42,145 nucleotides of DNA from an uncultured Opitutales bacterium (lineage in GTDB: Bacteria; Verrucomicrobiota; Verrucomicrobiia; Opitutales; UBA9783), in assembly GCA_944389435.1 (NCBI GenBank), contig CALXMI010000037.1, positions 1 through 42,145 on the forward strand. Direction: 5' to 3'. Positions 1,734-36,817 of the stretch are shown piece by piece. The translations under genes were made by a program, and so were the position numbers. How positions within the stretch are numbered: position 1 is the stretch's first letter; every line of letters begins with the position of its first letter. The notes under the pieces are model-generated. The model was not told where the DNA came from. It was given only the letters and a program-made list of their open reading frames with translations, and searched no databases.

Positions 1734-1738
1734 ATCAA

Positions 1739-2391: not shown

Positions 2392-2398
2392 ATCCTTT

Positions 2399-2425: not shown

Positions 2426-2438
2426 ATTGGAGGAAATC

Positions 2439-4875: not shown

Positions 4876-4902
4876 TTAAATCACTGAAAAGAGGACAAAA
4901 CA

Positions 4903-5439: not shown

Positions 5440-5462
5440 AAAATACCGAAAGGACAGAATTT

Positions 5463-6295: not shown

Positions 6296-6304
6296 GAGGC
6301 ACTT

Positions 6305-7527: not shown

Positions 7528-7573
7528 CTATTTGAATGACGACGCTATGCGTCTTATTAAAGGAGGCAAATCA

Positions 7574-17138: not shown

Positions 17139-17166
17139 TAATTTACACCTCTTATCTGTTTAATAT

Positions 17167-19786: not shown

Positions 19787-19798
19787 TCTCCTTATCTT

Positions 19799-20098
19799 TT
19801 AAACGTATTCTTTGATTAGTTCTTCGCAACAGAACTCTTTCAAAATTTTATTTACATCATCAAGCAAGCTTATATTTGTTTTTTGCGGTGCATATGTGGA
19901 TATAATTTTTTCACAAATATATTGGCTGCTGATATCTAAATTTTGTTCATTTGCCTCATTAAGAATATTCCAAATAAAAGAAGCGGATTGATTTAAAGAA
20001 ATTATACGCTTGCGTTGCTTGTCGTATGCAACAATCTCGTTCTCTATATTTTCTATTTCAAGTTTCGTTAATATCATTTCTTTGCCGTTAATTTTCAT
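19799..20098 (-). CDS. PqqD family RiPP recognition element (RRE)
   Basis: IVAYD...IISLNQSASFIWNIL...DDVNKILKEF...LI; about 100 aa, next to a radical SAM gene. Confidence 0.85.
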   Translation of the reverse strand: MKINGKEMILTKLEIENIENEIVAYDKQRKRIISLNQSASFIWNILNEANEQNLDISSQYICEKIISTYAPQKTNISLLDDVNKILKEFCCEELIKEYV

Positions 20099-20108
20099 AA
20101 TTATACTC

Positions 20109-21461
20109 CTAATTGCTTGTTAATTTATAAACAGAATTTTTTCCAAAAAGAACGTTGTCGACTAATTCAGCTTTCCAACCAAAGCATGTATTTCCACAAA
20201 GAATCTCGGTAAATACATACGACCAGTACTTTCGAATTAATTGACACTCATAATCCCTGTATTTTGTATCAAAGGCATTGTCTCTCACAACCTTTAGCGG
20301 ACAGCCGCCTTTGCAAAAACGATACGCTATACATCCTCTGCACTCATCAAAAGAATTCTTCACCACATCTAAATGTTGATCGGTATAGCTGTTATAAAAA
20401 TCCACCATATTGTCTTTTATTTCGGCAACGATGGTTTTGAACTGCTCGGCCTCAATACAGTTGATAATTTTTCTATCTGGCATCAGCCAAAAACATTCTG
20501 CAAATGTAGCTCCGCAACAGTATTCTGCAATAGTATTATTAAATATCGGTGTAGAAATATATAACTTGTAATTCTTTTCCTTTGCGTAGTTATGTAAGTT
20601 CACATAATGGTGAAAGAAATCGTATTTTTCTATGTTGTATTGATCTTTGTTGCCGTTTTTTAATGCACGCCCAGACGGAATTATTGGCATAATGCTCCAC
20701 TCGTTTATACCAGAACTGTTGTTTGCAATGTTATCACAAATTTGCTTGAGGTTTTCAAAGTTTTCATACCAAACAGTTGATCTTACCGTTAGTGAGCGTC
20801 CGCTTTGGCTAAAGTCTTGAAGAGTTTTTTCGACGACTGGAGATGAATTTGTTGTGTCAGAACATTTTCTGTTTCTGTTTTGCAAAAAAGATGTTCCATC
20901 ATACGACAACATAATTTTGTCAAAATGTTTAATTATAAATTTTCTCTGAGAGTTATTAAGCATTCCATTTGTCGTTAATTCAAAATAATAAGGCACAGAG
21001 CAGTTATCACAAAGATTTTTTATGGCACGTATTGACTCTTTAAACAACTCCCAATTAAATGTAGGCTCACCACCTCCCGTGAAAAAGAATCGCAAAGGTT
21101 CAGAATCATCGTTCTTATCAATAAATTGATATATTTTCCTCTTTTTAATTGCTTCTTTAACAAAAACGAGAATATCTTTCACTGACAGTAAGTCCTGATT
21201 TCCGCTGGTTGAAGAATAACTACAGTAATTACACCTTAATTGACAATTGTATGTCAAACATATACCAATCAAATTTATTGGCTTGTTTTTGGCAGACATT
21301 TTTGTTTTATCTAATTTATCTAAACAACTTTTTAATTCTTCATAATTATCAGTTTTTCTACAAATAGTATTTATTTCGGTTATTACGCTTTGTGCTGCGT
21401 CTTTGGGATAAAATATCAGTCTTTCCGAGTCGAAAATATAATTGCCTATATAGTGGTACAT
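20109..21461 (-). CDS. Radical SAM/SPASM peptide maturase 1
   Basis: CQLRCNYC, GGGEP, TTNG, SYDG; SPASM cysteines CCGA...NC...CRGCIAYRFCKGGCP...EC; ATG 21461 after ggagg. Confidence 0.9.
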   Translation of the reverse strand: MYHYIGNYIFDSERLIFYPKDAAQSVITEINTICRKTDNYEELKSCLDKLDKTKMSAKNKPINLIGICLTYNCQLRCNYCSYSSTSGNQDLLSVKDILVFVKEAIKKRKIYQFIDKNDDSEPLRFFFTGGGEPTFNWELFKESIRAIKNLCDNCSVPYYFELTTNGMLNNSQRKFIIKHFDKIMLSYDGTSFLQNRNRKCSDTTNSSPVVEKTLQDFSQSGRSLTVRSTVWYENFENLKQICDNIANNSSGINEWSIMPIIPSGRALKNGNKDQYNIEKYDFFHHYVNLHNYAKEKNYKLYISTPIFNNTIAEYCCGATFAECFWLMPDRKIINCIEAEQFKTIVAEIKDNMVDFYNSYTDQHLDVVKNSFDECRGCIAYRFCKGGCPLKVVRDNAFDTKYRDYECQLIRKYWSYVFTEILCGNTCFGWKAELVDNVLFGKNSVYKLTSN

Positions 21462-21480
21462 AAACGCATCTTCCTCCAAA

Positions 21481-21512
21481 TAGATGGTGTAAATAGTTCT
21501 AGACACCATTTA
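21481..21512 (-). promoter_or_regulatory. Hairpin between precursor P1 and the radical SAM RBS
   Basis: TAAATGGTGT/ACACCATCTA stem (one mismatch) with a 12-nt loop. Confidence 0.6.
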
Positions 21513-21535
21513 TATATATATTTCTTATGATAGCA

Positions 21536-21640
21536 CTATGAGTTCGTCTTGCCGGTAGGACAACACGATGCAGCGCGAGCCTCAATAGCACGAAGTTCTT
21601 CTTCGTCATACACTACGATAGCAGGTGTTTCGTATACCAT
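21536..21640 (-). CDS. Putative RiPP precursor peptide P1, 34 aa (not in ORF track)
   Basis: MVYETPAIVVYDEEELRAIEARAASCCPTGKTNS; RBS agaggaggg; YxxP leader motif; first gene of the rSAM/RRE operon. Confidence 0.88.
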   Translation of the reverse strand: MVYETPAIVVYDEEELRAIEARAASCCPTGKTNS

Positions 21641-22009: not shown

Positions 22010-22120
22010 TTATCTGAAATCTCCGGCGAAACATTGTCCGGATCTTGCAGCTGCTTGAATATGTTTTGCCAACTCTTTGGCACTCAATTCTACAACCACA
22101 GGCTTAACCCATTTTTTCAA
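22010..22120 (-). CDS. Putative RiPP precursor peptide P2, 36 aa (not in ORF track)
   Basis: MKKWVKPVVVELSAKELAKHIQAAARSGQCFAGDFR; TTG start overlaps the regulator TGA; RBS aagggggg; double TAA then terminator; leader resembles P1. Confidence 0.82.
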   Translation of the reverse strand: MKKWVKPVVVELSAKELAKHIQAAARSGQCFAGDFR

Positions 22121-23181
22121 CTAAATCCCCCCTTATCTTTATAATATTTTTCTAACATACCGCATAGGGTCTGAAAGTACTGTTTATTAATGCTGTAAAG
22201 AATGGTTCTCCCGCGATTTCGCGTCTTAAGCATACCAGCTTTTATCATTAAAGATAGATGGTAATAAGCATTTGTTCCAGTAAATCCGAATTCTTGCTCC
22301 AAATCTTTTATTGTTATTTCTTCTTTTTCATATATCAAGTTCAAAACCGAAACTCTGTTTGATTCAGAAATTGCGTTTCCGAAATTTTCAAGCTCTGGCA
22401 ATCTAAACTGAACAGTCAAATAATTGATATGTTCAATATAATCAATACCTAATAATATTACAACTTCATTTGAATAATAGTGTGTTTTAACACAATTCTT
22501 ATGATATAAGCAGAACGTGATGTAAATATCGTCAAAACAAGAAAAATCGCCTTTTTGATTTTTCGTTTGCATAAGTTGGTTTAAAACAATATCAAAATCA
22601 AAATTATCTTTAAGTTCACTCAATAATTTATGTTTTGCATCATACTTTTGAGATAACGCAAAACTTTTCTCCATCAACTCATATGACAGTTTGTGGATAA
22701 CCGTTTCAGGCTCTATAAAGAACGAATATAACGCACTTTTAATTTCACCGCTATATGTGGAATTTTTGATGAACTTATTAACATAGGTTATCGAGTCCTT
22801 ACATTTTATGACATCTTCTTCGCGAATATCCTTAAAGTAGAATCTAATAATATTCTCTTTTACCTTTTCGTGATTGGATAATTCTTCTTGCACCATAGAG
22901 AGATTATAATTTTCAAAAACAAAATGTGCTTTATATGGCTCGTAATAATATTTAGTTATTACATTCTTTTTGTCTTCTGTGAAATAGAAAAACAAAAGAA
23001 GCTCATCTGAAATCGGTGAAAATTCATTTAGTATTTTACTGTAATAGTCAGTATCTTCACTTGATTTACTATAGTTTATGAAATTTGTCAGACAATAATC
23101 CTTGTTAAAATTAAAAGCAAATAAGAAAAAAAGGTCGTATATAAAGCCGGGTTCATCAAGAAATTTAATATTTCTCATCAC
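22117..23181 (-). CDS. Transcriptional regulator: large N-terminal domain plus C-terminal ArsR-like wHTH
   Basis: NRVSVLNLI...ITIKDLEQEFGFTGTNAYYHLSLMIKAGML...GRTILYSIN. Confidence 0.85.
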   Translation of the reverse strand: MMRNIKFLDEPGFIYDLFFLFAFNFNKDYCLTNFINYSKSSEDTDYYSKILNEFSPISDELLLFFYFTEDKKNVITKYYYEPYKAHFVFENYNLSMVQEELSNHEKVKENIIRFYFKDIREEDVIKCKDSITYVNKFIKNSTYSGEIKSALYSFFIEPETVIHKLSYELMEKSFALSQKYDAKHKLLSELKDNFDFDIVLNQLMQTKNQKGDFSCFDDIYITFCLYHKNCVKTHYYSNEVVILLGIDYIEHINYLTVQFRLPELENFGNAISESNRVSVLNLIYEKEEITIKDLEQEFGFTGTNAYYHLSLMIKAGMLKTRNRGRTILYSINKQYFQTLCGMLEKYYKDKGGFS

Positions 23182-23232: not shown

Positions 23233-23300
23233 TTTATTTTTAGTGAACAACTAAAAATATAATAAAACCAATGTTTAAGAAACATACGAAAGGCATAAAT

Positions 23301-23609
23301 ATGATAGGGAAAAAGTTAAAGAGAAGCAGAATATCCGCAGGTTTAACCCAACAGCAGTTGGCAGAAAAAATTGGAATTAGCAGAAGTGCGGTTTCCAAAT
23401 ACGAATGTAACAAGTTGCGACCAAGCCTTAAAGTAAAGGCCAAACTTTGTTTGCGTTTGGATGATTGTGCCGATTTCTTATTAGCCTCCAACTCTCGAAA
23501 GCACGACAAAGTTTCCGTGTCCTCTCAGCCCCTTTCACCCGAAGAAATCAATAATATAGCAGAATTAATTAAAGAATGGACTTCGGAAGAATACCGTCTA
23601 TTTCCCTAA
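23301..23609 (+). CDS. XRE-family HTH regulator
   Basis: LKRSRISAGLTQQQLAEKIGISRSAVSKYE...P. Confidence 0.85.
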   Translation: MIGKKLKRSRISAGLTQQQLAEKIGISRSAVSKYECNKLRPSLKVKAKLCLRLDDCADFLLASNSRKHDKVSVSSQPLSPEEINNIAELIKEWTSEEYRLFP

Positions 23610-23640: not shown

Positions 23641-23859
23641 TTGCAGCAATCATTAAAGAAATCTCTACCCAAAACAGTAACCGAAGCAATAGTTTTTCCT
23701 AACAATAATGCATATTGGATATGCCCAAATTGCAAATGCTCTTTTGAAAGAGAGTACCAATCGTATTGTGACAGATGTGGACAACGATTAAAGTGGATCG
23801 CTTTAAGAAAAGTTAAATATATACTAATAAAACCACCAAATAATAAAAAATATTTTTAG
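23641..23859 (+). CDS. Zinc-ribbon protein (possibly the C-terminal part of the XRE gene via a +1 shift)
   Basis: CPNC...CDRCGQRLKW; no clear RBS; frame open back across the XRE stop. Confidence 0.65.
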   Translation: MQQSLKKSLPKTVTEAIVFPNNNAYWICPNCKCSFEREYQSYCDRCGQRLKWIALRKVKYILIKPPNNKKYF

Positions 23860-23898
23860 TCATTGGCAAATTATAAATCGCAAATCAGGGAGAATATT

Positions 23899-24708
23899 AT
23901 GTTAACGATAGCCATACACGCACCATTCCAAACAAGCTTTACCATAAAAACCAACTGCAAAGAGTTAGCAAATGCAATTGTGTTAAGGCACGGTAAATAT
24001 GCAACTAAAAGTACAACTCAATCAGATATTACAATTATCGCTGAAAAAGAACAATCAGGTTATAGCATATACTTTAACGGCAATTCTGTAAAAACAAATG
24101 CTCCCTTAAAAAAAATAGAAGACATTATGTATGACAACCGTAAATATGAAGAAACAATATTTGCCGTTCACGGCGGTGCTGTAGAATACAATAATGGCGC
24201 ATATCTTGTTGTTGCCTCCACTACAAGCGGAAAAACCACCCTTACATCATATCTAGTTTCAAACGGTTTTGGATATATTACTGATGATTGCATACTTCTT
24301 GACCGTGAAAGCTTTAAAATATATCCGTTTACAACTCCCCTGCATTTGCGCAAAGGCGGTTATAACGCTCTGAAAGCTTTAGGTTGTGCCCCTGAAAGCT
24401 ATGATTTTTTAGACTCGGTTTCCATTAAAAGATATGTTTATACGCCTAATAATTCTGTTTCAAAACCGCTGCCGCTTAAAAAAATATTTTTTATCACAAG
24501 AACGGAAGATACGAATATGATAGAAGAAATGAATACCACAGAAAAAATAACCGCTCTTCTCAAATCGCCTATTACTGAATATGAAATTGGCGGCAGTTAT
24601 CTTTCGTTTATTTCCAAACTGTCCGCTATTCCCTGCAAAAGGCTTTATTACAGCAATATGGATTTTGTCGCCGAGGTAATTAAATATGAACAACAATCTT
24701 ATAATTAA
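23899..24708 (+). CDS. HPr kinase-like P-loop kinase 2
   Basis: VHGGAV, ASTTSGKTT, YITDD. Confidence 0.75.
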   Translation: MLTIAIHAPFQTSFTIKTNCKELANAIVLRHGKYATKSTTQSDITIIAEKEQSGYSIYFNGNSVKTNAPLKKIEDIMYDNRKYEETIFAVHGGAVEYNNGAYLVVASTTSGKTTLTSYLVSNGFGYITDDCILLDRESFKIYPFTTPLHLRKGGYNALKALGCAPESYDFLDSVSIKRYVYTPNNSVSKPLPLKKIFFITRTEDTNMIEEMNTTEKITALLKSPITEYEIGGSYLSFISKLSAIPCKRLYYSNMDFVAEVIKYEQQSYN

Positions 24709-25405
24709 AATTCTGCCTGCTGTTTTAAAAACCAAAGGACAGGCAGAACTCACTGTAACAGGGACGAGCATGGAACCGACTCTAATTGAAGGTGATTTGA
24801 TAACAATCATAAAGTGTGATAATTACACAATCGGCGATATTCTTGTTTTTGACTATAAAAACGAGGGGCTTCTGGTTCACAGATTACTAAAAACATCCAA
24901 CCGATACTTCTGTAAAGGCGATAATTCTTTTAGGCTTGAAGATATGCCTGCAGAAAACATTATTGGAAAAGTCACAGCTGTAAACGGAGTTCCAATTGCC
25001 GTTTGGCAAAAATGGAAAATGGATTTGTCTTATGCTGTCAATCGATCATTTGTTAAATCAAAATATGATATTACAAATACAATGCAGACAGATATATATA
25101 AACTGTATTCAGCCTTAATTTTAGGAAAAGAGGAAAACAAAATGAATTACAAGAAAACAGATAAAATGGACTTTATTCTTTCAGATGAAACTTCACTTGC
25201 CGTATTTGATCCGGAAAGCAACAATACATACTTTTTTGACGAAACCGGGATAGACATTCTAAATTGTCTTGACATCCCTTGTGATATTGAAATGCTTTTA
25301 GATATGCTTTGCAATATTTATTCAGCATCCCCTGAAGATATCAGGGCAGATGTTGAAGAATTCTTAGCAGATACAGTAACCAAAGGAATTGTTGAAATAG
25401 TATGA
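24686..25405 (+). CDS. S24/S26 signal peptidase-like domain fused to a C-terminal PqqD/RRE
   Basis: GTSMEPTL..GD, VHRL, KGDN; C-terminal 87 aa PqqD-like (FDPESNNTYFFDETGIDIL...DVEEFL...GIV). Confidence 0.85.
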   Translation: MNNNLIIKILPAVLKTKGQAELTVTGTSMEPTLIEGDLITIIKCDNYTIGDILVFDYKNEGLLVHRLLKTSNRYFCKGDNSFRLEDMPAENIIGKVTAVNGVPIAVWQKWKMDLSYAVNRSFVKSKYDITNTMQTDIYKLYSALILGKEENKMNYKKTDKMDFILSDETSLAVFDPESNNTYFFDETGIDILNCLDIPCDIEMLLDMLCNIYSASPEDIRADVEEFLADTVTKGIVEIV

Positions 25406-26448
25406 ACATTAAAACCGTTTATGTTGAAATAACTAATTTCTGCAACTTAAATTGTATCACTTGCTATAACCGATCGGGCTTAAACTGTCAAAGAACAGAA
25501 TTGTCATTTGAACAAATCGAGAATATTATCAAACTTTTTACGCCTTTAGGATTGAAAAGATTTTTATTATCAGGTGGAGAACCTACACTGCATTCCGAAT
25601 TTGACAAAATTCTTGATTTAATCGATAAATATCCAAAAATTAATTTTGGTATTGTTACTAACGGAACAAATCATAATAAAAAGCTATTAGAATGCCTTAA
25701 CTCAAGAGACAATTTAAAACTTCAGATAAGTCTTGACGGTTCCTGTGAAGAAATAAATTCCAAAACCCGCGGTATAGGCAATTTCAAAAAGACCTTAAGC
25801 TTTGCCAAACAAATACGCACCGCTCATAATATTCCTCTGCTTAAAATGGTCATATCACAAGGCAATTATGACGATGTAGAAAATTTCTGCAATTTAGCGA
25901 TTTCATTAGGCTTTACACCTGAACTTGCATTTATATACAAATCCGGAAACGGGTGTGACGAATGGGGCACTAAAGAGCTTACATCCATACAAAAATTAAA
26001 AATATTGAAACTTGTCGAGCGCATTAATAAAGAAAGAAATGCAGGTATATTTCTTCCAATCTGCACCACAAAATGTCCGTTAGCAGAAGGAATCAATGAA
26101 CTTTCTTTCTGTATTAAAGTAGACGGTTCAATTCAACCATGTCAATCCCTTTACAGTGAAAAATATACTGTCGGAAATGTTCTTTTCTTCGATAAAAAGC
26201 TATTTTTACAGAATATAAATAATATTTCCGATTTAGCAAGGCAGCGTTGTGAACAAGACTATGGCTGTGAAAAATGTATGCTGAATGACATTTGCGGCAG
26301 AGGATGCATGGCAGAAGCTGTAAATCTTCACGATAATCCATTTGCAAGTGACGGCAACTGCGAATATAGAAAACAACAATTTATTAACTTTAATCTAAAA
26401 GGAGGTATATCTGTACTTGAAAAAGAAGACAAAACATTCCACGCTTAG
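25402..26448 (+). CDS. Radical SAM/SPASM peptide maturase 2
   Basis: CNLNCITC, SGGEP, TNG, SLDG; SPASM CP...DGSIQPC...CEKCMLNDICGRGC...C. Confidence 0.9.
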   Translation: MNIKTVYVEITNFCNLNCITCYNRSGLNCQRTELSFEQIENIIKLFTPLGLKRFLLSGGEPTLHSEFDKILDLIDKYPKINFGIVTNGTNHNKKLLECLNSRDNLKLQISLDGSCEEINSKTRGIGNFKKTLSFAKQIRTAHNIPLLKMVISQGNYDDVENFCNLAISLGFTPELAFIYKSGNGCDEWGTKELTSIQKLKILKLVERINKERNAGIFLPICTTKCPLAEGINELSFCIKVDGSIQPCQSLYSEKYTVGNVLFFDKKLFLQNINNISDLARQRCEQDYGCEKCMLNDICGRGCMAEAVNLHDNPFASDGNCEYRKQQFINFNLKGGISVLEKEDKTFHA

Positions 26449-28228
26449 CAACAATTTATACATACTGAAACAAATACATATTGCAAGCCGCGGAAGAATA
26501 TTTTTTGAACTTTCGAGTATTATACTAAACACCGTTTCAAATATACTACTTGATGTTTATATGTTCAAATATATTATTAATGGTATTCAAAAGGGCTTAG
26601 ATTTTAAAAGACTTGTCGGTTTTATCCTGATTATTACGGCGTTTCATATTTTCACCGCTACCGTTGTCGACTATTTTTGGGAAAAATTCGCACCTGTCTC
26701 GAATCAAAAAATATATAGCCATATTCAAAAAAACTTGTTCGAAAAGGCCTCGTCTGTCGAGTTTGCCTGCTTTGAAGACCCTGACTTTTACGATAAATAT
26801 GTTAAAGCAATAAGCGAAGCATACAATAGAACCAATGAGGTTCTAAGGTCGTTGTGCGACATTGTATATTTTATTTTTAACGCTTTTGCTACCTCGTTTA
26901 TCATATTTACAATTGATCCCGTGCTGATAGTATTCGCGCTGATACCCTTTATTGTAAGTATTCTGTTCGGGAAAAGGCTTAACAAAGTGCGATACAATTA
27001 CACTATGGAAATGCAGGAAAAATCCAGAAAACGCGACTATGTAAAAAGGGTGTTTTACCTTGCCGACTACGCAAAGGAAATGCGGCTCACGAATATAAAC
27101 AGGGTTATGTTCAAAAAATTTTACGAGGCGATAAAGGAGCTTAAGGGGGTTATTAAAAAGCACGGGCTTAAGGTTGCGTTATTGGATTATTTGTTCATAG
27201 CGGTTAATGATATTATCGTTTACCTCGGCGCTATTCTATATTCCGCCTATAAAACCCTTGTTTCAAAAACAATGCTTTACGGCGACTGCGTGGTTGTTAT
27301 AAACGGAATAAACAATGTCGCGTGGTCACTGCGCAATATGGCTGATGTTTTTATTCAGTTTCAGAATCACTCGCTTTATATCGACAATCTGCGCTATTTC
27401 CTTGAATACAAGCCCGCAATTTATGAAAACAGGGAGGGACTCGACCCGCCCGATACCTGCGCGCTCACCCTTAAAAACGTAAGCTTTAAATACGCAGGTC
27501 AGGAAGATTATTCCCTTAAAAATATTAATTTCACAATAAAGCAGGGCGAAAAAATCGCCTTGGTCGGTCACAACGGCGCGGGTAAAACCACCCTTGTTAA
27601 GCTGTTAATGCGGCTTTACGATGTGACCGAGGGCGAGATACAGCTAAACGGCAGACCGATAAAGGAATACAAGCTTAAAGGCTACCGTAATCTGTTCTCG
27701 GTTGTGTTTCAGGATTTCAAGGTCTTCGCCGTATCGGTTTTGGAAAATATTTTGCTTAAAGCAGATATTACTAAGGAAGAAAAAAATCGCGCGGTAAGCG
27801 GTATGAAGGACGCGGGTATTTATGACAAGGTAATGTCCCTTGAAAAGGGCTATGAAACCGTGCTTACAAAGGAATTTGACGAAAACGGAGCGGTGCTTTC
27901 GGGCGGAGAGACCCAGAAAATCGCTATATCAAGGGTGTTTGCAAGGGACTGCCCCATCGCGATTTTAGACGAGCCTTCAAGTGCGCTTGACCCGCTGGCG
28001 GAGTACGCCATGTACGAGGCTATGATGAATGCGTGCAGGGACAAGGCGGTAATCTTTATTTCCCACAGGCTTTCCTCCGCGGTTTTGGCGGACAGGGTTT
28101 ACCTTATGGAAAAGGGAGAAATAATTGAAAGCGGCACCCACCGAGAGCTGCTCGAAAAGGGCGGCAAATACGCCGATATGTGGAGCAAGCAGGCGGAAAA
28201 ATACCGTAAAAAGGAGGAAGATGTATGA
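26417..28228 (+). CDS. ABC exporter subunit 1 (TMD plus NBD)
   Basis: GHNGAGKT, LSGGE, LDEP, SHRLS. Confidence 0.93.
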   Translation: MKKKTKHSTLSNNLYILKQIHIASRGRIFFELSSIILNTVSNILLDVYMFKYIINGIQKGLDFKRLVGFILIITAFHIFTATVVDYFWEKFAPVSNQKIYSHIQKNLFEKASSVEFACFEDPDFYDKYVKAISEAYNRTNEVLRSLCDIVYFIFNAFATSFIIFTIDPVLIVFALIPFIVSILFGKRLNKVRYNYTMEMQEKSRKRDYVKRVFYLADYAKEMRLTNINRVMFKKFYEAIKELKGVIKKHGLKVALLDYLFIAVNDIIVYLGAILYSAYKTLVSKTMLYGDCVVVINGINNVAWSLRNMADVFIQFQNHSLYIDNLRYFLEYKPAIYENREGLDPPDTCALTLKNVSFKYAGQEDYSLKNINFTIKQGEKIALVGHNGAGKTTLVKLLMRLYDVTEGEIQLNGRPIKEYKLKGYRNLFSVVFQDFKVFAVSVLENILLKADITKEEKNRAVSGMKDAGIYDKVMSLEKGYETVLTKEFDENGAVLSGGETQKIAISRVFARDCPIAILDEPSSALDPLAEYAMYEAMMNACRDKAVIFISHRLSSAVLADRVYLMEKGEIIESGTHRELLEKGGKYADMWSKQAEKYRKKEEDV

Positions 28229-30000
28229 AAGAAAAGGGCAGCGTACTGTTTATGATTAAGCAAGCCGTAAAATATGTTCCCTCCTTCTGTCTCTTTACAG
28301 TTGCGGAGGGTGTTGTTTGGGGCTGTATACACTCCTTTACAAGTACGCTCTTTATAAAGGCGCTGTTTGACAGAATAGAAAGCGGCGTCCCCTATTCTGA
28401 AATACTCCTGCTTGTCCTTGCTATGGCGGTTTTTCTTATTTCAGCCTACATATTCCACGAATGGTACTGGCAGTTTATAGAGCCGAAAGCGCGGCAGGAG
28501 CTGCACAAAAAAATGCAGGAGCAGCTATACAAAAAAGCGGCTTCCATAGACCTTGCCTGCTATGACCGCCCCGACTTTTACAACGACTTTGTCTGGGCGA
28601 TTAACGAGGCGGACTCAAGAACAATCGCAATATGTGAGGACATAGGCAAAATAATAAACCGCCTTATCACATCGGCGGTTATAATAGGCGTTTTATTCAC
28701 GATAGATTTGTGGATTGTGGCGGCGGTGCTTTTTTCGGTTGTCTTCAGCGTAGTTTTGCAAAGACTTATTACAAAAATTTATTTTAAGCGCGACAACGAG
28801 CTTAAACCCTTTCAACGCAGGGCTGAATATATAAGCAGGGTTCACTATCTTGCGGACTATGCAAAGGAAATCCGAATGAGCGAAGCCGAGGACTTACTCT
28901 TAAAGAATTTTGACACGGCTGTAGGAAGCAATATTTCAATAACCAAGTCCTACGGCAATAAGCTGTTTTTTCTGAATCTTACAAGAACCACCTTTACCGC
29001 CGTAATGTTTGACGCGGTTATTACAATACTGCTACTTTATAAGATGATGATAGAAAAATCCGTAACTCTCGGCGGATTTGCCGCCACATTCAGCGCTATG
29101 TGGAAGCTTTTTTGGACGCTTAATAATCTTATGGATTATTTTGCAAAATTCAAGGAGCATAAGCTTTATGCTAACAAGTTCAGGGTGTTTCTTAATTACG
29201 AGCCAACCGTGTGCGATAAGGAGGGTTGTACCGAATTAACCGCCCCGTTTAAGACCCTTGAGCTTAAAAATGTCTCCTTTGCCTACCCTGAAGCCGAAAA
29301 AAACATAATAAACGGCATAAATATGACCGTAAAGGCGGGGCAAAAAATCGCCCTTGTTGGCTACAACGGTGCGGGCAAATCAACCCTTGTAAAACTGCTT
29401 TTAAGACTATATGATGTTTCAGGCGGCGATATTTTTATAAACGGCAAGAGCATTAAGGATTACACCCTTTGCTCCTACCGAAACAAATTCGGTACCGTTT
29501 TTCAGGATTTTCAGCTCTACGCCGCCGATATTGCCGAAAACGTCCTTACCGACGAATATTCCGAAGAAGACCAGTCCCGCGTACTTGAAGCCCTTAAAAA
29601 CAGCGGATTTGAAGAAAGGCTTTCTTCCCTTAAGGAGGGTATTCACACACCGCTTACAAAGGAATTTGACCAAAGCGGAATTAACCTTTCGGGCGGCGAG
29701 GCGCAAAAAGTCGCAATATCAAGGGTGTTTGCAAAGGACTGCGAGATAGTTATTTTAGACGAGCCCTCAAGCGCACTCGACCCTATGACCGAATACGAAT
29801 TAAACAATACTCTGATGACCGCCCTTGACAAAACGGTTATAATAATTTCCCACCGCCTTTCTACGACCCGTATGGCGGACGTTATCTATATGCTTGAAAA
29901 CGGCGAGATTATTGAACAGGGCAGTCACGACGAGCTTATGCAAACGGGCGGCAAATACGCCGAAATGTTTTTAAAGCAGGCGGAAAAATATAATTTTTAG
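28225..30000 (+). CDS. ABC exporter subunit 2 (TMD plus NBD)
   Basis: GYNGAGKS, LSGGE, LDEP, SHRLST; ATGA overlap suggests a heterodimer. Confidence 0.93.
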   Translation: MKEKGSVLFMIKQAVKYVPSFCLFTVAEGVVWGCIHSFTSTLFIKALFDRIESGVPYSEILLLVLAMAVFLISAYIFHEWYWQFIEPKARQELHKKMQEQLYKKAASIDLACYDRPDFYNDFVWAINEADSRTIAICEDIGKIINRLITSAVIIGVLFTIDLWIVAAVLFSVVFSVVLQRLITKIYFKRDNELKPFQRRAEYISRVHYLADYAKEIRMSEAEDLLLKNFDTAVGSNISITKSYGNKLFFLNLTRTTFTAVMFDAVITILLLYKMMIEKSVTLGGFAATFSAMWKLFWTLNNLMDYFAKFKEHKLYANKFRVFLNYEPTVCDKEGCTELTAPFKTLELKNVSFAYPEAEKNIINGINMTVKAGQKIALVGYNGAGKSTLVKLLLRLYDVSGGDIFINGKSIKDYTLCSYRNKFGTVFQDFQLYAADIAENVLTDEYSEEDQSRVLEALKNSGFEERLSSLKEGIHTPLTKEFDQSGINLSGGEAQKVAISRVFAKDCEIVILDEPSSALDPMTEYELNNTLMTALDKTVIIISHRLSTTRMADVIYMLENGEIIEQGSHDELMQTGGKYAEMFLKQAEKYNF

Positions 30001-30013
30001 GAAGTGTACGAAT

Positions 30014-31201
30014 ATGGACAAGGAAAAAATTTTAGAAGTATTAGGAAATATCATTGATATAAATAAAGAACAGCTTTTAAAAACTTCAGTTGATACGAAA
30101 CTGACCGATTTGGGGCTTACTTCAATTCAATTCATTCAATTTATTGTGGCTATTGAGGAAGAATTTGAAATTGAAATTTTAGACAGCGATCTTATAATGA
30201 CAAATTTCGAAACGGTAGAAATGCTTTTCAGTACATTAGAAAAGTATTTCACCCCCAAAAGCACTTTAAAAAAAGTACTTATTTGTGATTGCGATAATGT
30301 ATTATGGTACGGCATTTCAGGCGAAGAAGAAATATACATAGATGCTATAATCCTGAAATTTCAAGAAACCTTAATAGAATTATACAACCGCGGAATACTT
30401 ATATGCCTTTGCAGTAAAAATGAGCCGGAAAATATAGAAACGGTATTTAACTCTCTTGAAATGCCGCTGAAAAAGAATCATATCTTAATATCAAAAATAA
30501 ATTTGACGGATAAAGCCACAAACATAAAAGAAATTGCTCTTGAATTAAATCTTTCTGCCGATAGCTTCGTTTTTGTTGACGACAGCAAATATGAGCTTGA
30601 CCTTGTATCTTCTATAATTCCCGATATTACAACCGTCCTTGCGGATTATTCTAATTGCGATTTTATAGAAAAAATCAAAGGATTTTTTGACGGGAGTTCT
30701 ACAGATATTAACCGTACACAACAGTACAGAGATCAAAAAGAACGTGAAAAAGAAAAGCAGCGTTATGCAAGCGCTGAAGAATTTAATGCATCGCTCAAGA
30801 CCGAGATAAAATGTGAAACGGCGTCACCTGCTCAAGCAGCACGAATATCTGAATTATCACAGCGAACCAATCAATTTAATCTTTCCGATGTAAGATATAC
30901 CGAAGAGGAAATTAATTATTTTATCAGGGATGAAGGATATTGCGTGTATGTCCTTTCCGCTTCAGATAAATACGGCGATATGGGATTGGTTGGTGCCGCG
31001 GTGGTACGCAAAACAGAAAATCCTGTCATTATAGGTTTTTTTCTTTCTTGTCGGGTCTTCGGAAGAGGTTTTGAAGAACATTTTCTAAATCAAATCAAAA
31101 GCAATTTTGCTGTTCCAATGTATGGTATTTATAAAAGAACAGATAAAAACAAGAGGTTTGAAGATTTTTACTCTAAAAATGGAGTTGAAATATATGAATA
31201 A
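30014..31201 (+). CDS. Acyl carrier protein fused to an FkbH-like HAD-IIIC glyceryl transferase/phosphatase
   Basis: ACP: LTDLGLTSIQFIQFIVAIEEEFEIEI. FkbH: DCDNVLW, SKN, FVDDS, QRTNQFN, DKYGDMGLVG, LSCRVFGRG. Confidence 0.87.
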   Translation: MDKEKILEVLGNIIDINKEQLLKTSVDTKLTDLGLTSIQFIQFIVAIEEEFEIEILDSDLIMTNFETVEMLFSTLEKYFTPKSTLKKVLICDCDNVLWYGISGEEEIYIDAIILKFQETLIELYNRGILICLCSKNEPENIETVFNSLEMPLKKNHILISKINLTDKATNIKEIALELNLSADSFVFVDDSKYELDLVSSIIPDITTVLADYSNCDFIEKIKGFFDGSSTDINRTQQYRDQKEREKEKQRYASAEEFNASLKTEIKCETASPAQAARISELSQRTNQFNLSDVRYTEEEINYFIRDEGYCVYVLSASDKYGDMGLVGAAVVRKTENPVIIGFFLSCRVFGRGFEEHFLNQIKSNFAVPMYGIYKRTDKNKRFEDFYSKNGVEIYE

Positions 31202-32247
31202 ATATATCGAAGCCGTTCGCGATTTAGCAAACGAAAAACAAACAAGCTTTGATATTTCTGAAATATTATACAATCATGGTTGTATCTATCTTCTTTCAAA
31301 AATAAAGGGCAAGAATAAATATACAGATAGATTAAAAGCAGAGAATTTATTAAATAAAATATGTATTAACGAAAGATATAAAACCTGTTCTGCAGTCTTC
31401 CGCGAATTTAAAGAAAACAATATCTCCTATGCCGTAATAAAGGGCGCTGTATTATCTGCTGCGGCATATAATAATCCGTTTTGTCGACAATCAGGAGACA
31501 TAGATATACTTATCAACCGAAAGGATATTGATAAAATAAAAGAAATAATGCTTCGAAACGGCTTTGTCCAAGGAAAAATTACCGAAAATGGAGTTGAGCC
31601 TTTCTCTCGCAAGGAAATATTATTCCAGACCGCTATGTCTCACCAAACTGCTCCCTTTGTTAAAAAAAACAAACAATAAAATATGTCCATATATTAATGT
31701 TGATCTTAATTTTGATATAATGTGGGGTGAAAGTGAAACAAAGGCAGATATGGAATTTGTTCTTCAAAACACTATGGAAACGGCAATACTGGGCGTGATA
31801 TTTAATAAGCTCTCTCCGGAAATGGAATTCATATCGCTTTGCCTGCACCACTATAAAGACTTAAATTCCATTTATTTGCTATATGAGCGTGGATTAACAT
31901 TAAGCCATTTCTGCGACATATATTTTTTCATTAAGAATTGTAACATAGATTCAGAAGCTCTTTATAATTATTGTTTAAAATTGAATGTCGGCAAATATGT
32001 TTACTATTGCTTATACTACACCAATCTTATATTTGACGATGAAATCATAAAAAAATATATGTTATTATTGCATTCAACTGAATCAGATGCAATTCTTAAT
32101 TCCTTCGGCCTTTCCGATAAAGAACGGCAAAGCTGGGATATTGACTTTTTTACAAGGCTGTTTGATTCAAATATTAGTCAATATTTGGAAAATTCACTTT
32201 CTGAATCTGATTTGAAGAAAATAATTATAAATCAACAGCTTATGTAG
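31194..32247 (+). pseudogene. Nucleotidyltransferase family protein (NTP_transf_5-like), split by a frameshift at the A8 run 31662-31669
   Basis: IKGAVLS..AY...RQSGDIDILI in the first frame, VDLNF...LCLHH in the second; removing one A gives continuous APFVKKTNNKICPYINVDLNF. Confidence 0.8.
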
Positions 32248-32270: not shown

Positions 32271-35200
32271 TTGAAAAAGTTTATTACAGTACTAATAATA
32301 ATTCTATCATCTATTTGTATATTTGCAACATTGACCAAGAGTACTTCTTTTAATATTGAACCCACAAATTTAAGATTTAGAAATGATTATTCTTCTATGT
32401 ACGATCAGTTTCCTCCTAACCATGTTAAAATAATAAAATTGGAAATAATAGTTCATTTAAATAATACTGCTATTGATATTTCAGGAGAGTATATCAAGAA
32501 TCAAACTGATTCTAATACCAAGAAAAGAATTGATGATTACATTGATTCATACTATATTCCTTTTGCTAATTATGATAATACAATCCTTTGTTTTTCCGAA
32601 CGCACTTTATATATAATAACCGCAAATAATTACGAATCAATTAACACATTTGAATTTATATATAATGATAATAGTTTGAGAATATATGACGAATTTGGTC
32701 ATTGTGATGTTTATAACTGTACATTCAAATACAACGATGAGGATTTTTTCTCTAATAACAGTCAAATCTCCAATAATATTAATGATGGCACCAATACCTC
32801 AACCGGAGAACTGAAACCTCAAGCAATACAGGAATCAGAATCTAAATTCATTTCATTTTTAAAAAATATTATTATTCCATGGCTTTGGGAAATAATATGT
32901 GCCGTGCTTTTTAGCATTTTAATTTGTGTTTTCATTTTCAGCAGAATGTCTTTTATCTTATATCGCAAATATAAAAAGAATTTAAAAACAAGCATCTTCC
33001 CACGAGAGCATACATGGTTTGGTAATAATACGCCCACTGAAATTTATATATCAACTAAAGTATTTATCGGTGATACATGTCAAGAATACGGCTTACTGGA
33101 GTATTTTTCTTCAGCTATTATGCAAGATGTATCAAAATATGTAATTCTCGGCAATGCAGGAGAAGGTAAAACATTTTCACTTTCAAGATTGATATTAGCC
33201 TTGTTGGATTGTTTTTCAATAGATAAAAATAATAAAAACGCTCGTAAAAAAATCAAAAAACTAATTCCTGTATTATTAAATTTTTCGCAATTGAGCGATT
33301 GTAAAAGCAACGATGACTTAATTAATGTGATATATAAAAACATTTCAGATTCAGTCAAGCTTAAAAGCAATATCATAAATAAGATTATATATTTCCGTTA
33401 TAAATCAAAAATGATTAATACTATAGAGCATTACTTAAATTTAGGCAGATTTATTCTTTTAATTGATGGATATGATGAAATAGCCAATACAGAAGATCGA
33501 CTTCATACCTCTAAAATGCTTATGGATTTTATGAATGAATTTGAAAAGTGTAACTTTATTATGACATCAAGAACACAAATTTACGAAAAAGAAAAATTCC
33601 TAAATATACCACCAGAAAATACATTATATCTCTCACCGCTAACAAAAGAACAAATACATAAATTTGTTTCAAAATGGAATTTTCCGAACGGAAAATCTTC
33701 TTCTGATTTATTTCAAAGAATCGTTAATACCAAACAATTAGAGGGAATAATTACTAATCCGTTGTTGCTGACAATGGTTACTCATACATATAGTAATTCA
33801 AATATTTCAACTTTCAATAGTAAAACCGAGTTATATAAAAGCTGTTGTAATTGTTTATTGTCCGAATGGGAAAACAATAAAGTATTTTTCAAAAGAATTA
33901 TAAGATATAATACTATAAAAAATCCAAATATGAAAATAGAATTATTATCCTCGCTTGCATATGAACTGTATTTATCAAATTCTCCAAGTCTTGAAGAGGA
34001 AAGAGTCCTTCAAATTTGGGCTAATCATCCGAAAGAAAATTCCTATTTTCACGGTCAAACTCAAAATGTGTTAGATGATATAATTAACCAAAGCAGTATT
34101 CTTGAGCGTACAAACGACAGCATTAGATTTCGTCATAAATCTTTTTATGAATATTTTATTGCATTATATTTCTCACAAAACAATTATGACATAAAAAAAT
34201 TGTATGAAAATATATTGAGTAATTTAAACATTTTATTCTTTTACTTCTCATTAGTACCGGACGAAAAAATTGTTACAGATTTTATATTGAATAATTCCGA
34301 ATATAAAAAATTAATATGCGATATTATTCTTGAAAGACATATAAAATATAATACTGTCATTGAAAACATAGTAGATCCAATTATCGACAAAACTTCTTTT
34401 ATCAATTTAACGGATGTTCAGACATTAGGGTACATTGCTAAACAATATCCCGTGGTCGCACAAAAAATAGAAGATGTATTGTTAAAAAAGCTTTCATCTA
34501 CTAATAATAAAACCGAAAGAATCAATGTCCTTATCGGTCTTTTGATTTTTTGCAACAAAGAACTTTTATCTTCAATATTTGATAAGTATATATCAAAAAT
34601 CGATATAGAGTACCTTGTGGAATATTCAGGAGAAAGCATTAATGATTTCGCATGTTTAATTGTACAACTGTTAGAGGATAATGATCACAAGATTAACTTT
34701 ATTGAAAGTTTGGCGAAATCGTTTAGGTTTGATGCAATTTACAATATTTATAATAACAGTTCAAACGAAATAAAAGATTTTGCAGTAATTGGATTATTAT
34801 ACATGGGAAAAGAACCGGAATTGCTAAATTGGTTGTATACAAAAAAATTTGCTGACAGCATTACTCCAGATGAACAAAACAAAGTTAATAATATTAAAGA
34901 AAATTATGGTTGGGAAAACGATAGACTAAGTGATGAAGCACTTACAAATCTTTACACCCTAACTTATTTAAGTTCGCAAGTAATTCTAAACGGATTTCGT
35001 CCCAATATGGAATTAGTTGAAAACAAGTTGGCTTTTTTACTGTGTTTATTAATCAGCGATTCAAAAGGGAAATTGTACTATGAATTATTGAATATTGATA
35101 ACTTATATATTAAATCGTATGTAGAACTGACTTATCATTGGAATCTGATAAAAAGAAGTAAAAAGAAAAGCAATTTTTTAAGAAAAGGAATTATAGACAC

Positions 35201-35669
35201 TGTTAGTATTAATAGAATAATAATCGCATTGGTTCTCTCTTCAATTCTTATACAAATGCTTATTATAGTCATTAACTGCAGTAATTTAAATGAATTATCG
35301 AATGAAGGTTGGATATTTGTTAATATTAATAGCAATTCATTATTTCCTTTTAATACATTATATATATTAATGGTTGGGTTGTTTTTCATGGTTATAAGGA
35401 GTTTTAATGAACTATTAAAAAAATTTGAGTATAACTTTTTTACAATTGCTGCTTCTTTTGCTTTTTCTTTAATAACATTCATATTATTTTGCATCGTAAT
35501 ATATAATATAACTTTCAGATTGTTAACACTATTATCTATGATAATGGTAAGCATTTTAGAAATAATTAAACATAAAAACAATTATCCCTCTTTGAAAGAA
35601 CCTCAATACAGTAAAATAATTAACTTTCTTAATGATGAATATCATTTTAATGACATTCATATAGGATAA
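32271..35669 (+). CDS. Membrane-anchored NACHT/STAND NTPase
   Basis: Walker A GNAGEGKT, Walker B LLIDGYDE, TSR, NPLLL, FRHKSFYEYF; N-terminal signal/TM, second TM before the NTPase, about four C-terminal TMs. Confidence 0.85.
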   Translation: MKKFITVLIIILSSICIFATLTKSTSFNIEPTNLRFRNDYSSMYDQFPPNHVKIIKLEIIVHLNNTAIDISGEYIKNQTDSNTKKRIDDYIDSYYIPFANYDNTILCFSERTLYIITANNYESINTFEFIYNDNSLRIYDEFGHCDVYNCTFKYNDEDFFSNNSQISNNINDGTNTSTGELKPQAIQESESKFISFLKNIIIPWLWEIICAVLFSILICVFIFSRMSFILYRKYKKNLKTSIFPREHTWFGNNTPTEIYISTKVFIGDTCQEYGLLEYFSSAIMQDVSKYVILGNAGEGKTFSLSRLILALLDCFSIDKNNKNARKKIKKLIPVLLNFSQLSDCKSNDDLINVIYKNISDSVKLKSNIINKIIYFRYKSKMINTIEHYLNLGRFILLIDGYDEIANTEDRLHTSKMLMDFMNEFEKCNFIMTSRTQIYEKEKFLNIPPENTLYLSPLTKEQIHKFVSKWNFPNGKSSSDLFQRIVNTKQLEGIITNPLLLTMVTHTYSNSNISTFNSKTELYKSCCNCLLSEWENNKVFFKRIIRYNTIKNPNMKIELLSSLAYELYLSNSPSLEEERVLQIWANHPKENSYFHGQTQNVLDDIINQSSILERTNDSIRFRHKSFYEYFIALYFSQNNYDIKKLYENILSNLNILFFYFSLVPDEKIVTDFILNNSEYKKLICDIILERHIKYNTVIENIVDPIIDKTSFINLTDVQTLGYIAKQYPVVAQKIEDVLLKKLSSTNNKTERINVLIGLLIFCNKELLSSIFDKYISKIDIEYLVEYSGESINDFACLIVQLLEDNDHKINFIESLAKSFRFDAIYNIYNNSSNEIKDFAVIGLLYMGKEPELLNWLYTKKFADSITPDEQNKVNNIKENYGWENDRLSDEALTNLYTLTYLSSQVILNGFRPNMELVENKLAFLLCLLISDSKGKLYYELLNIDNLYIKSYVELTYHWNLIKRSKKKSNFLRKGIIDTVSINRIIIALVLSSILIQMLIIVINCSNLNELSNEGWIFVNINSNSLFPFNTLYILMVGLFFMVIRSFNELLKKFEYNFFTIAASFAFSLITFILFCIVIYNITFRLLTLLSMIMVSILEIIKHKNNYPSLKEPQYSKIINFLNDEYHFNDIHIG

Positions 35670-35748
35670 ACTATAAATTTGATAAGAGGAAAAATTGTGT
35701 TATGGACAATTTCATTCTTGTTGTTGTTGACAGTCAAACAGTAGAAAT

Positions 35749-35780
35749 AATTTGCCGAGATTACTATCTCGGCGAATTTT
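35749..35780. terminator. Probable bidirectional terminator
   Basis: aatttgccgagat/atctcggcgaatt hairpin between convergent genes. Confidence 0.7.
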
Positions 35781-35872
35781 ATACTGTATTAACTTAATTT
35801 TTACTGTTACATTTAAAATTGATTCCAACTGCCCAAAAAGAGCATTTAAGTCAAAAAAATGAAATATAATTA

Positions 35873-36817
35873 TCATTCGCTGTATTTATACAATTTCTTA
35901 CACAGCTTTTTAAAATACTCTTTATTAATACTGTAAAAGACAGTTCTCCCTTCATATCTTGTGTTTACCATACCGGGTTTTGTCATTGACGACAAATGAT
36001 AATAGGCATTAGTGCCGCTTAAACACAATTGCTGCTCAATATCCTTAATCGTTATTTCTCCGCTTGTTTTCATCATCTCTAACAGCTTCAGTCTGTTGAT
36101 TTCCGTAAAAACATATCCAAAATCTTTTAAATCGTAGCGATTTTCGGTATCTATATTATTACTGTAATCCTCGCTTATCAATAATAAATAATTGCCGCTT
36201 TTCAGAGGAAAAACTTTCAATACTTCCTTGTCCAATAAAGAAACTGCACACACGGTATTATCAGAGATTTTATCAGTTAAATTCAGTTTATCCAACACTT
36301 TGGGTTCTAAAATACCCTGGTGAATTTTTGAAATGCTGAACGAATGATTTTCATACTTTCTTTTTAACTGTAAATTTAATTCCAACAGAGTCCTCATTAA
36401 CTCGTGTACAGTTTTAACAGGCTCAATAAATAACGAATATAGAGAGCTTTTTAATTCATCGGGATATTTCGACTTTAAAATTAACTTGTTTAAATCATAT
36501 AAAGACCTGAAATCGTTAAAAACAAATTTAATATTAACATCGCCGAAATAATAATCAATAATTCTATTTACGGAATTTTCACAGTCAATAAGCTTATTTT
36601 GAATAACCTCAATATTTTCATTGATCAATAATTCCTCATAGCTTTCAGCAAAAATATTCTGCATAAAGGAATACCCTTTGTCGCTCTTATAAAAGAAGGG
36701 CAGAATACAATCAGATACGCCTTTCCAGTCCAACCATTTATTTTCGTATTTGCTGTTAAAGTGTTCGGATAGAACATATATCATATCATAATAAATTCCA
36801 ATATCAGAATGAATCAT
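35873..36817 (-). CDS. ArsR-like wHTH regulator, paralogue of 22117-23181
   Basis: Shared motifs LYSxFIEP, EITIKD, GTNAYYHLS, GRTxxYSINKxYF. Confidence 0.85.
   Translation of the reverse strand: MIHSDIGIYYDMIYVLSEHFNSKYENKWLDWKGVSDCILPFFYKSDKGYSFMQNIFAESYEELLINENIEVIQNKLIDCENSVNRIIDYYFGDVNIKFVFNDFRSLYDLNKLILKSKYPDELKSSLYSLFIEPVKTVHELMRTLLELNLQLKRKYENHSFSISKIHQGILEPKVLDKLNLTDKISDNTVCAVSLLDKEVLKVFPLKSGNYLLLISEDYSNNIDTENRYDLKDFGYVFTEINRLKLLEMMKTSGEITIKDIEQQLCLSGTNAYYHLSSMTKPGMVNTRYEGRTVFYSINKEYFKKLCKKLYKYSE

Follow-up and report, generated by a model that had tools for sequence, protein, structure and literature searches.

What is an FkbH enzyme, known as a supplier of glycerate to polyketide and tetronate assembly lines, doing in what looks like an operon for a ribosomal peptide? 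The question is raised by a contig (C37, CALXMI010000037.1) of an uncultured Opitutales bacterium, which was analysed over its whole length of 42,145 nucleotides and is referred to below as the window; the assembly to which it belongs comprises 0.95 Mb and is 87.6% complete. An acyl carrier protein (ACP) is fused there to an FkbH domain, and the fusion gene is followed by that of a PF14907 nucleotidyltransferase (NTP5). In FkbH systems, glyceryl-ACP is formed from 1,3-bisphosphoglycerate, according to excerpts of two reports (PMC7489565, PMC3679948). The module of HprK-like, S24, (ACP)FkbH and NTP5 proteins travels with a radical S-adenosylmethionine (rSAM)/SPASM maturase, PqqD and short precursor peptides. 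With rather more confidence than doubt, we read ACP-FkbH and NTP5 as tailoring enzymes of a cassette resembling those for RiPPs (peptides that are synthesized by ribosomes and modified after translation), in which glyceryl-S-ACP would supply a C3 unit to be joined to the core peptide.

The genes concerned form an operon on the plus strand (23863-32247), in which neighbours overlap or lie at most 13 nt apart throughout. Their order is HprK-like, S24-PqqD, rSAM2, two ATP-binding cassette (ABC) genes, ACP-FkbH and NTP5:

23863..24708, plus strand: HprK-like P-loop protein, putative peptide Ser/Thr kinase (TIGR04352 HprK_rel_A; syntenic in 14 genome loci)
24686..25405, plus strand: S24/S26 signal-peptidase-like domain fused to a PqqD peptide-binding domain (Pfam Peptidase_S24, PqqD)
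25402..26448, plus strand: radical SAM/SPASM maturase, rSAM2 (Pfam Radical_SAM)
26417..30000 (26417-28228 and 28225-30000), plus strand: two ABC exporter half-transporter genes (Pfam ABC_tran)
30014..31201, plus strand: ACP-FkbH fusion, 395 amino acids (Pfam PP-binding, NCBIfam TIGR01686)
31194..31679, plus strand: 5' part of NTP_transf_5 with the SGDxD motif and a premature stop from a frameshift (PF14907)
31662..31669, plus strand: A8 homopolymer with a one-base frameshift (sequence)
31664..32247, plus strand: 3' part of NTP_transf_5 in the +1 frame, with the HHYKD.NS motif (PF14907, alignment A3)

The initial annotation had placed the FkbH and nucleotidyltransferase genes downstream of rSAM2 and the ABC genes in a peptide operon, within a window free of polyketide synthase (PKS) and nonribosomal peptide synthetase (NRPS) genes. 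The continuous gene run confirms the placement, but the HprK-like kinase and the S24 peptidase had been missed as members of the module. The absence of PKS and NRPS is likewise borne out, since Pfam scans of the 41 window open reading frames (ORFs) found no ketosynthase, condensation or adenylation domain. The Condensation domain had no match in the entire assembly, which encodes two ketosynthase ORFs of ~416 amino acids, sized like fatty-acid synthesis enzymes. Enzymes that use glyceryl-ACP (FkbK/I/G-type dehydrogenases, the methyltransferase, the FabH-like tetronate enzyme, PKS/NRPS) were also not found among the 41 ORFs.

In what follows, homologous loci are numbered L0xx, relative proteins P0xxx, sequencing runs X1-X18 and alignments A1-A6. 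Within the 395-residue fusion protein, a PP-binding domain was matched at residues 4-71 (Pfam; E 1.1e-8, 35.6 bits, cut-off 20.8) and the TIGR01686 'FkbH domain' at residues 85-392, with 210.5 bits against a curated cut-off of 146.65 (NCBIfam; repeated in a whole-genome search). NCBIfam also reported a match to TIGR01681 HAD-IIIC. The AlphaFold2 model, built with 89 relatives (predicted local distance difference test, pLDDT, 88.6), has a HAD phosphatase core flanked by a small helical domain at the N-terminus and a GNAT-like one at the C-terminus. In Foldseek searches with this model, HAD phosphatases ranked best (3slr, E 1.5e-11; MDP-1, KdsC), followed by the GNAT acyltransferases 8xj5 and 9mgu. 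Given that profile matches, model and fold matches agree, the fusion is real, and the earlier description of ACP and FkbH as one polypeptide is correct. PF00550 is present in 113 of the 120 best relatives. Ser37 of the ACP is invariant in alignments A1 and A4; among 89 sequences, D94, K167 and D189 never vary and D92, S134 and D190 are at least 90% conserved, and S345-C346-R347 in the GNAT-like part is invariant in the alignments of relatives. Among these FkbH residues lie what we take to be the catalytic Asp pair, the Lys, the late Asp and the acyl-carrying Cys.

The ATG of NTP5 (31194) lies 8 nt before the FkbH stop (31199-31201). The overlap of the two genes had been noted in the initial annotation and the PF14907 match supports the enzyme class, but the distribution of the gene over two frames had escaped notice. 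The 5' part (31194-31679) covers PF14907 profile positions 41-124 (63.6 bits, E 2.8e-17) and the 3' part (31564-32247) positions 137-248 (45.1 bits, E 1.2e-11), both against a cut-off of 31.2, and the SGDxD and HHYKD motifs are invariant or nearly so in alignment A3. The frame breaks at the A8 run (31662-31669), where removal of one A (giving A7) yields a single frame in agreement with the intact L002 homologue. Fold comparison assigns NTP5 to the Pol-beta nucleotidyltransferase fold (Z 12.6 to 8.4); the nearest chains are MenT1 (Z 12.6), ANT(2'') 4xje (Z 11.0), TglT and LnuA, with FKRP weaker (Z 6.9), and the NTP5 profile had no sequence match among solved structures. A prediction of the ACP-FkbH/NTP5 complex, made for the L002 pair with alignments A4 and A3, reached a median score of 0.20 against a mark of 0.32 and weighs neither way.

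The association of these two enzymes with peptide genes is a conserved one. A scan of one genome per species gave 38 loci, which were compared with the window proteins by tblastn. Full-length ACP-FkbH was present in 17 loci, with 40-74% identity to the window protein. NTP5 lies directly downstream of it in 16 of the 17 (exception L015), an rSAM2 homologue lies upstream in 15 (exceptions L008 and L015), and the HprK-like and S24(-PqqD) genes accompany it in 14, L004 being cut off at its 5' end. The cassette, written as HprK-like/S24-PqqD/rSAM-SPASM/(two ABC)/ACP-FkbH/NTP5, is present in 15 of the 17 full-length loci. The ABC pair, with a GC content of 0.425 compared with 0.29-0.32 on either side, is found between rSAM2 and ACP-FkbH in the genome loci L002, L003, L009, L013 and L017 and not in L004-L007, L010-L012, L014, L016, L018 and L019; since many relatives have no such pair at this place, it is an optional insert in the cassette. 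At the 19 loci whose FkbH domain stands without a fused ACP (30-41% identity), no other protein of the cassette was seen.

The reverse search gave the same picture. A metagenome scan was seeded with the S24-PqqD alignment, and of the 20 loci whose sequence extends 1.5 kb or more past the rSAM or S24 gene, 19 contain an FkbH homologue. The gene set is also seen in an alternative architecture: in L075 and L077, a single operon encodes a P1-like precursor, an rSAM1-type enzyme, PqqD, HprK-like, ABC, S24, NTP5, ACP and FkbH proteins, the ACP being a separate protein of 88 amino acids, the FkbH 523 amino acids long and the rSAM enzyme from a different clade. Unfused FkbH is encoded in L074 and L055 as well. 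Two further gene fusions link the cassette members to each other: P0093 (567 amino acids) joins an S24 domain to ACP-FkbH, and P0123 (753 amino acids, from one 3.2-kb contig) joins ACP-FkbH to NTP5. In a quick maximum-likelihood tree of 47 FkbH domains, from which L046, L047, L050, L052, L060, L063, L064 and L077 were left out as short or near-duplicate, the ACP-fused proteins form one group (SH-aLRT 99), and the context label changes 3 times along the tree compared with 15.4 times in shuffles. The initial annotation had assigned ACP-FkbH and the nucleotidyltransferase to the peptide pathway, conceding that their homologues might track other pathways. Gene order, fusions and reverse search support the assignment strongly, and the neighbourhood analysis favours the peptide link, with the cassette in 15 of 17 loci and recurring P2-type precursors; the one fusion outside a peptide context (L015) had been overlooked.

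The predicted substrate is P2, a short peptide encoded on the opposite strand. The genes between the cassette and this precursor, and a second precursor, are as follows:

22010..22120, minus strand: P2 precursor peptide, 36 amino acids, predicted core RSGQCFAGDFR after A-A-A (ORF)
22117..23181, minus strand: ArsR-type regulator, 354 amino acids, translationally coupled to P2 (NCBIfam NF033788)
23271-23609, plus strand: Xre-type helix-turn-helix (HTH) gene, operon head (Pfam HTH_3)
23641-23859, plus strand: 72-residue CxxC...CxxC protein, operon head (ORF, conserved in L002, L011, L044-L050)
21536..21640, minus strand: P1 precursor of the neighbouring minus-strand operon (ORF, same A-x-A / X-S...C junction as P2)

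The P2 gene overlaps the stop of the regulator gene, and this regulator-then-precursor pair recurs in L002, L003, L011, L018, L019 and L044-L051. More P2-like peptides are encoded in the metagenome loci, mostly directly after an ArsR-type gene. In L014, L059 and L064, FkbH and NTP5 are separated by a precursor gene, and the P1-like precursor of L075 heads the operon that contains S24, NTP5, ACP and FkbH. The 21 distinct precursors, among them P1 and the L075 peptide, share a W-x-K-P leader, A-x-A, one variable residue, a Ser (19) or Thr (2), and a later Cys. A-x-A is the classic signal-peptidase site, and cleavage there therefore fits the S24/S26 domain, in which S28, H65 and K77 are invariant (alignment A6).

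Of the remaining cassette enzymes, S24-PqqD scored 51.0 bits with TIGR02228 (cut-off 51.85). The maturase rSAM2 falls below all named family cut-offs in NCBIfam (MftC 107.8/265, StsB 87.1/625, PapB 62.6/340), its best match being the mycofactocin maturase. The HprK-like protein matched TIGR04352 HprK_rel_A with an E-value of 2.9e-7, an atlas lead places it with 'HPr kinase family' clusters (score 0.97), and no sequence match to it was found among solved structures. Neither a lasso cyclase nor a B2 protease was matched among the cassette proteins by Pfam or NCBIfam.

These observations suggest a model for the pathway. The leader of a P2-type precursor would be bound by PqqD, and the rSAM enzyme would cross-link the conserved Cys. 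The signal-peptidase-like S24 domain would cleave after A-x-A, releasing the core (RSGQCFAGDFR in the window), and the FkbH domain would take a C3 unit from 1,3-bisphosphoglycerate via Cys346, the HAD part removing the 3-phosphate and the glyceryl group being parked on Ser37 of the ACP. For leader binding, Cys cross-linking, A-x-A cleavage and glyceryl loading, the protein families are the guide. By analogy with lasso peptides, in which relatives of the HprK-like protein phosphorylate a Ser, we propose that this protein places a phosphate on the Ser/Thr at core position 2 and that NTP5 couples this phosphate with the ACP-held glycerate: it may activate either the phospho-Ser or a glyceryl hydroxyl, leaving a phosphate bridge between glycerate and peptide. 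Either water or the newly freed N-terminal amine might then release the thioester, and the product would be a glyceroyl cap or else a small ring closed by a phosphodiester; the amine is considered as an acceptor because an S24 peptidase is found fused to ACP-FkbH. The order in which a glyceryl group is placed on the peptide and then phosphorylated or nucleotidylated is plausible as well.

How does such a pathway compare with characterized systems? With the FkbH and ACP pairs that load glyceryl units, such as those for methoxymalonyl-ACP of the FK520 type and the tetronate operons, the window protein shares its FkbH score, its HAD part, a GNAT-like part with the conserved Cys, and an ACP as partner. 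In contrast to the polyketide systems, its ACP is fused N-terminally, the protein is short (395 amino acids) and the context is a ribosomal-peptide cassette, without dehydrogenases, O-methyltransferase, FabH-like enzyme, PKS or NRPS. A second parallel is found in lasso peptides, where, in excerpts of two reports, an HprK-type kinase phosphorylates Ser, and attachment of 162-Da units to the phosphate requires the uncharacterised nucleotidyltransferase PsmN, modelled on the ANT(2'') entries 5cfs and 4xje (PMC6993621, PMC8498205). The cassette has in common with this tailoring (paeninodin, pseudomycoidin) an HprK-like protein, a nucleotidyltransferase of the Pol-beta fold and PqqD, and the NTP5 fold matches include the PsmN modelling template 4xje, a likeness confined to fold matches. 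The window differs from the lasso systems in having no lasso cyclase or B2 protease, in adding ACP-FkbH, in using a radical SAM enzyme as maturase, and in carrying its conserved hydroxyl at core position 2 and not at the C-terminus.

With rSAM/SPASM systems (ranthipeptides of the PapB type, sactipeptides, mycofactocin MftC), the cassette shares the rSAM/SPASM and PqqD proteins, a short Cys-bearing precursor and ABC export, whereas rSAM2 scores far below the MftC, StsB and PapB cut-offs; we know of no FkbH in PapB-type, sactipeptide or mycofactocin systems. Lipolanthines, goadvionins and selidamides provide a precedent for passing a carrier-protein-held acyl group to a ribosomal peptide, and they do so with fatty-acid or polyketide machinery plus a dedicated acyltransferase. 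The donor in the cassette would instead be a C3 unit from glycolysis, and the only candidate for a separate acyltransferase, a mere lead to a possible BtrH-like protein, is encoded at 13479-14546.

Several observations weigh against assigning ACP-FkbH and NTP5 to peptide tailoring. All of the chemistry is deduced from protein families and gene order, and no cassette enzyme is known to use glyceryl-ACP. The HprK-like match amounts to only 29.9 bits against the TIGR04352 cut-off of 200, which leaves the kinase assignment weak. The membership of PsmN in PF14907 is our presumption, and a search with the NTP5 profile for longer fusion proteins, a weak search that relies on shared words, returned only P0123 and one PF14907 protein of 798 residues, without any lasso B2 fusion. 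Counting the window, the genome set has 17 places with the cassette, and P2-like precursors turned up in just 8 of them; none was found in L004, L005, L007, L008, L009, L010, L012, L013 and L016, and several contigs end at the cassette edge. L008 retains just FkbH, NTP5 and one PqqD gene. L045, the exception in the reverse search, has kinase, peptidase and rSAM genes and no FkbH, its cassette abutting a PNPase gene. The ACP-FkbH of L015 (47% identity) stands in a non-peptide context and yet nests inside the cassette clade.

Other reservations concern the sampling and the window itself. Numerous metagenome loci nearly duplicate genome loci (L046 of L011; L059 and L064 of L014), and L050, L061 and L063 are 95-99% identical to the window; the locus counts are for this reason not independent. 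The host assignment is shaky, as the contig stands out from its bin in composition: its tetranucleotide correlation of 0.857 is the third-lowest among contigs of at least 8 kb, most of which reach at least 0.946, and its GC content is 0.373 compared with 0.41 for the assembly. The ACP-FkbH gene was found in none of 20 other genomes of the host family. That the assembly encodes one AcpS-type phosphopantetheinyl transferase counts in favour of the tailoring role, but with the host uncertain it is also uncertain which such enzyme is available to the ACP. Finally, NTP5 is broken in the window, and the only run that is 100% identical (X1) retains A8.

This last point leads to the alternative that survives best, namely that the window holds a dead copy, in which the module is decaying in this genome and the NTP5 frameshift is a true mutation; it is compatible with the other explanations. 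The presence of A8 in both the window and X1 speaks for it, but X1, which may be the source data of the window, is labelled a synthetic metagenome and reaches a depth of just 3.2. Length errors in homopolymers are common, and the motifs are retained in both halves of NTP5. Moreover, contigs of X2, X3 and X5, from three other studies, carry A7, with one A missing at 31662; the X2 pieces differ from the window at 0-3 positions over most of the stretch, and those of X3 and X5 at 23-28 positions per 1.3-1.4 kb. The NTP5 halves are in a single frame in 17 of 17 homologous loci, which together with A7 in X2, X3 and X5 indicates that the family is intact. The window copy, which may be inactive owing to its frameshift, could reflect either a true frameshift or a homopolymer error, and we consider a decaying module unlikely, while far from negligible. 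RNA runs X16-X18 contain 17-19% of the sampled words, which weighs neither way on expression.

Could the kinase or NTP5 instead activate the position-2 Ser/Thr for elimination, with attack by the Cys giving a lanthionine-like ring and ACP-FkbH acting separately, for example to form an N-terminal glycerate cap? Phosphorylation followed by elimination is the established route to class III/IV lanthipeptides, and both the Ser/Thr at core position 2 and the downstream Cys are conserved in the 21 distinct precursors. This scheme is nonetheless improbable: no lyase or cyclase domain was found among the cassette proteins, a radical SAM/SPASM enzyme is already present for cross-linking the Cys, and the adjacency of FkbH and NTP5 in 16 of 17 loci and their fusion in P0123 would be left without a reason.

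It is more improbable still that ACP-FkbH and NTP5 make a small molecule or an envelope decoration, for instance for self-protection of the producer, and are merely co-regulated with the peptide genes. The Sellimonas locus L015 has ACP-FkbH without peptide genes, L008 has FkbH and NTP5 without an rSAM gene, and PF14907 also occurs beside phosphoenolpyruvate (PEP) mutase in a phosphonate gene family, as an excerpt of PMC8942020 indicates. A product separate from the peptide is, however, hard to reconcile with the fusion of a leader-peptidase-like domain to ACP-FkbH in P0093, the precursor gene between FkbH and NTP5 in L014, the overlapping or nearly touching coding regions of the operon, and the recurrence of the same gene set with a second rSAM clade. 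Equally doubtful is an FkbH-like domain that handles another acyl phosphate or serves as phosphatase/acyltransferase on a phosphopeptide, the ACP carrying a different group: identity to the non-cassette FkbH domains (L020-L039 except L025) is just 30-41%, the window protein has no N-terminal extension like that of the 523-550-residue forms and the literature searched reports no assayed member of the ACP-FkbH clade, but the score is well above the curated FkbH cut-off, the HAD residues and Cys346 are conserved, and the unfused variant L075 has a long-form FkbH in a similar operon.

The tailoring role for ACP-FkbH and NTP5 thus remains the reading that we favour. In its boldest form, to which we give little credence, glycerate would be tied to the peptide twice, by a phosphodiester to the position-2 Ser/Thr and by an amide to the N-terminus freed by S24, forming a small phosphate-containing ring at the N-terminus beside the rSAM-made Cys cross-link. 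Were this true, FkbH/ACP chemistry would be seen on a ribosomal peptide for the first time, and the function of PF14907 proteins would be that of makers of phosphodiester links. Even in the simpler form, a RiPP role for FkbH would extend carrier-protein chemistry to a new substrate class and give a handle on two families that lack an assigned chemistry, the PF14907 nucleotidyltransferases and the HprK-related kinases. In the literature searched, with subscription journals largely outside it, we found no FkbH linked to ribosomal peptides, and the clusters described in the excerpted part of PMC9389541 are different ones. Taken together, the data make ACP-FkbH and NTP5 constant members of a cassette found in many gut Clostridia and point to a peptide modification not yet described. 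Gut and rumen Clostridia carry the cassette widely, on mobile elements, and its product may therefore matter in microbial competition or signalling in the gut.

FkbH proteins were also encountered in other surroundings. In Sellimonas intestinalis (L015:3133-12185), ACP-FkbH is encoded with a phosphoketolase, a HAD hydrolase, a glycosyltransferase of the GT28/UDPGT type and a PHP-domain protein; further neighbours are a thymidylate-kinase-like protein and ABC-2 transporters. As peptide genes are absent there, this represents a different, also undescribed, use of the fused enzyme. Two metagenome-assembled genomes of Bacillota (L020:3016-7043 and L021:6763-11008) encode an FkbH protein of ~550 amino acids beside an ORF of 83-87 amino acids, a GNAT protein and a BpsA_C/AdoMet-decarboxylase fusion, a neighbourhood that hints at glycerate-acylated polyamines.

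The acyltransferase candidate mentioned above (13479-14546, minus strand) is a protein of 355 amino acids in which Cys20, His112 and Asp120 are invariant in 4 sequences. An atlas lead (score 0.97) connects it with clusters annotated as BtrH_N, DUF4872 or Peptidase_C39_2 in 11-22% of their members; Pfam gave no meaningful match for the four family members at E up to 10, and solved structures gave no sequence match. Homologues are encoded directly after NTP5 in L011, L046, L047 and L048 and near the cassette in L014, L019, L045 and L059. As a lead, the product could be the missing ACP-dependent acyltransferase or a peptidase.

A second peptide operon (15465-21640, minus strand) encodes P1 (21536-21640), a PapB-like rSAM/SPASM enzyme, PqqD, a second HprK-like protein and ABC proteins. 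Behind these come a Dph6-like ATP pyrophosphatase (16431-17138), a prephenate-dehydratase-like protein (15874-16464) and a DUF2000 protein (15465-15908), an uncommon assortment of tailoring candidates, and the operon has no S24, NTP5 or FkbH genes of its own. The regulators encoded at 35873-36817 and 22117-23181 (both minus strand) are proteins of 314-354 amino acids that end in an ArsR-type HTH domain and whose large N-terminal part is unassigned. Relatives flank nearly every cassette, with a precursor gene directly after most of them and none after the copy at 35873. An ORF at 35712-35876 (minus strand), immediately behind the second of these ArsR-like genes (35873-36817), was considered as a third precursor; the lack of a leader motif and the presence of a hairpin with a T-run at this place led to its rejection. 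The 72-residue protein with two CxxC pairs had no match to Pfam or any other family, and its gene is directly upstream of the HprK-like gene in L002, L011 and L044-L050.

The cassette is set in a mobile element, with conjugation and replication proteins encoded in the flanks. The left arm (1-8476, plus strand) carries a prokaryotic JAB/ThiF(E1)/E2 set (1-1733 and 6868-7527), a radical SAM protein (2412-3497), a DUF6094 methyltransferase and a Rad52-like protein, and the right arm a RepA_N protein and a type IV secretion system (T4SS) coupling protein. Downstream of NTP5, in a region with a GC content of about 0.27, a NACHT/STAND NTPase of 1132 amino acids with predicted membrane segments is encoded (32271-35669, plus strand). 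Its resemblance to the antiphage protein EruA is weak and partial (42.8 bits, cut-off 1000), and homologues (54-56% identity) are encoded directly after NTP5 in L002 and L005.

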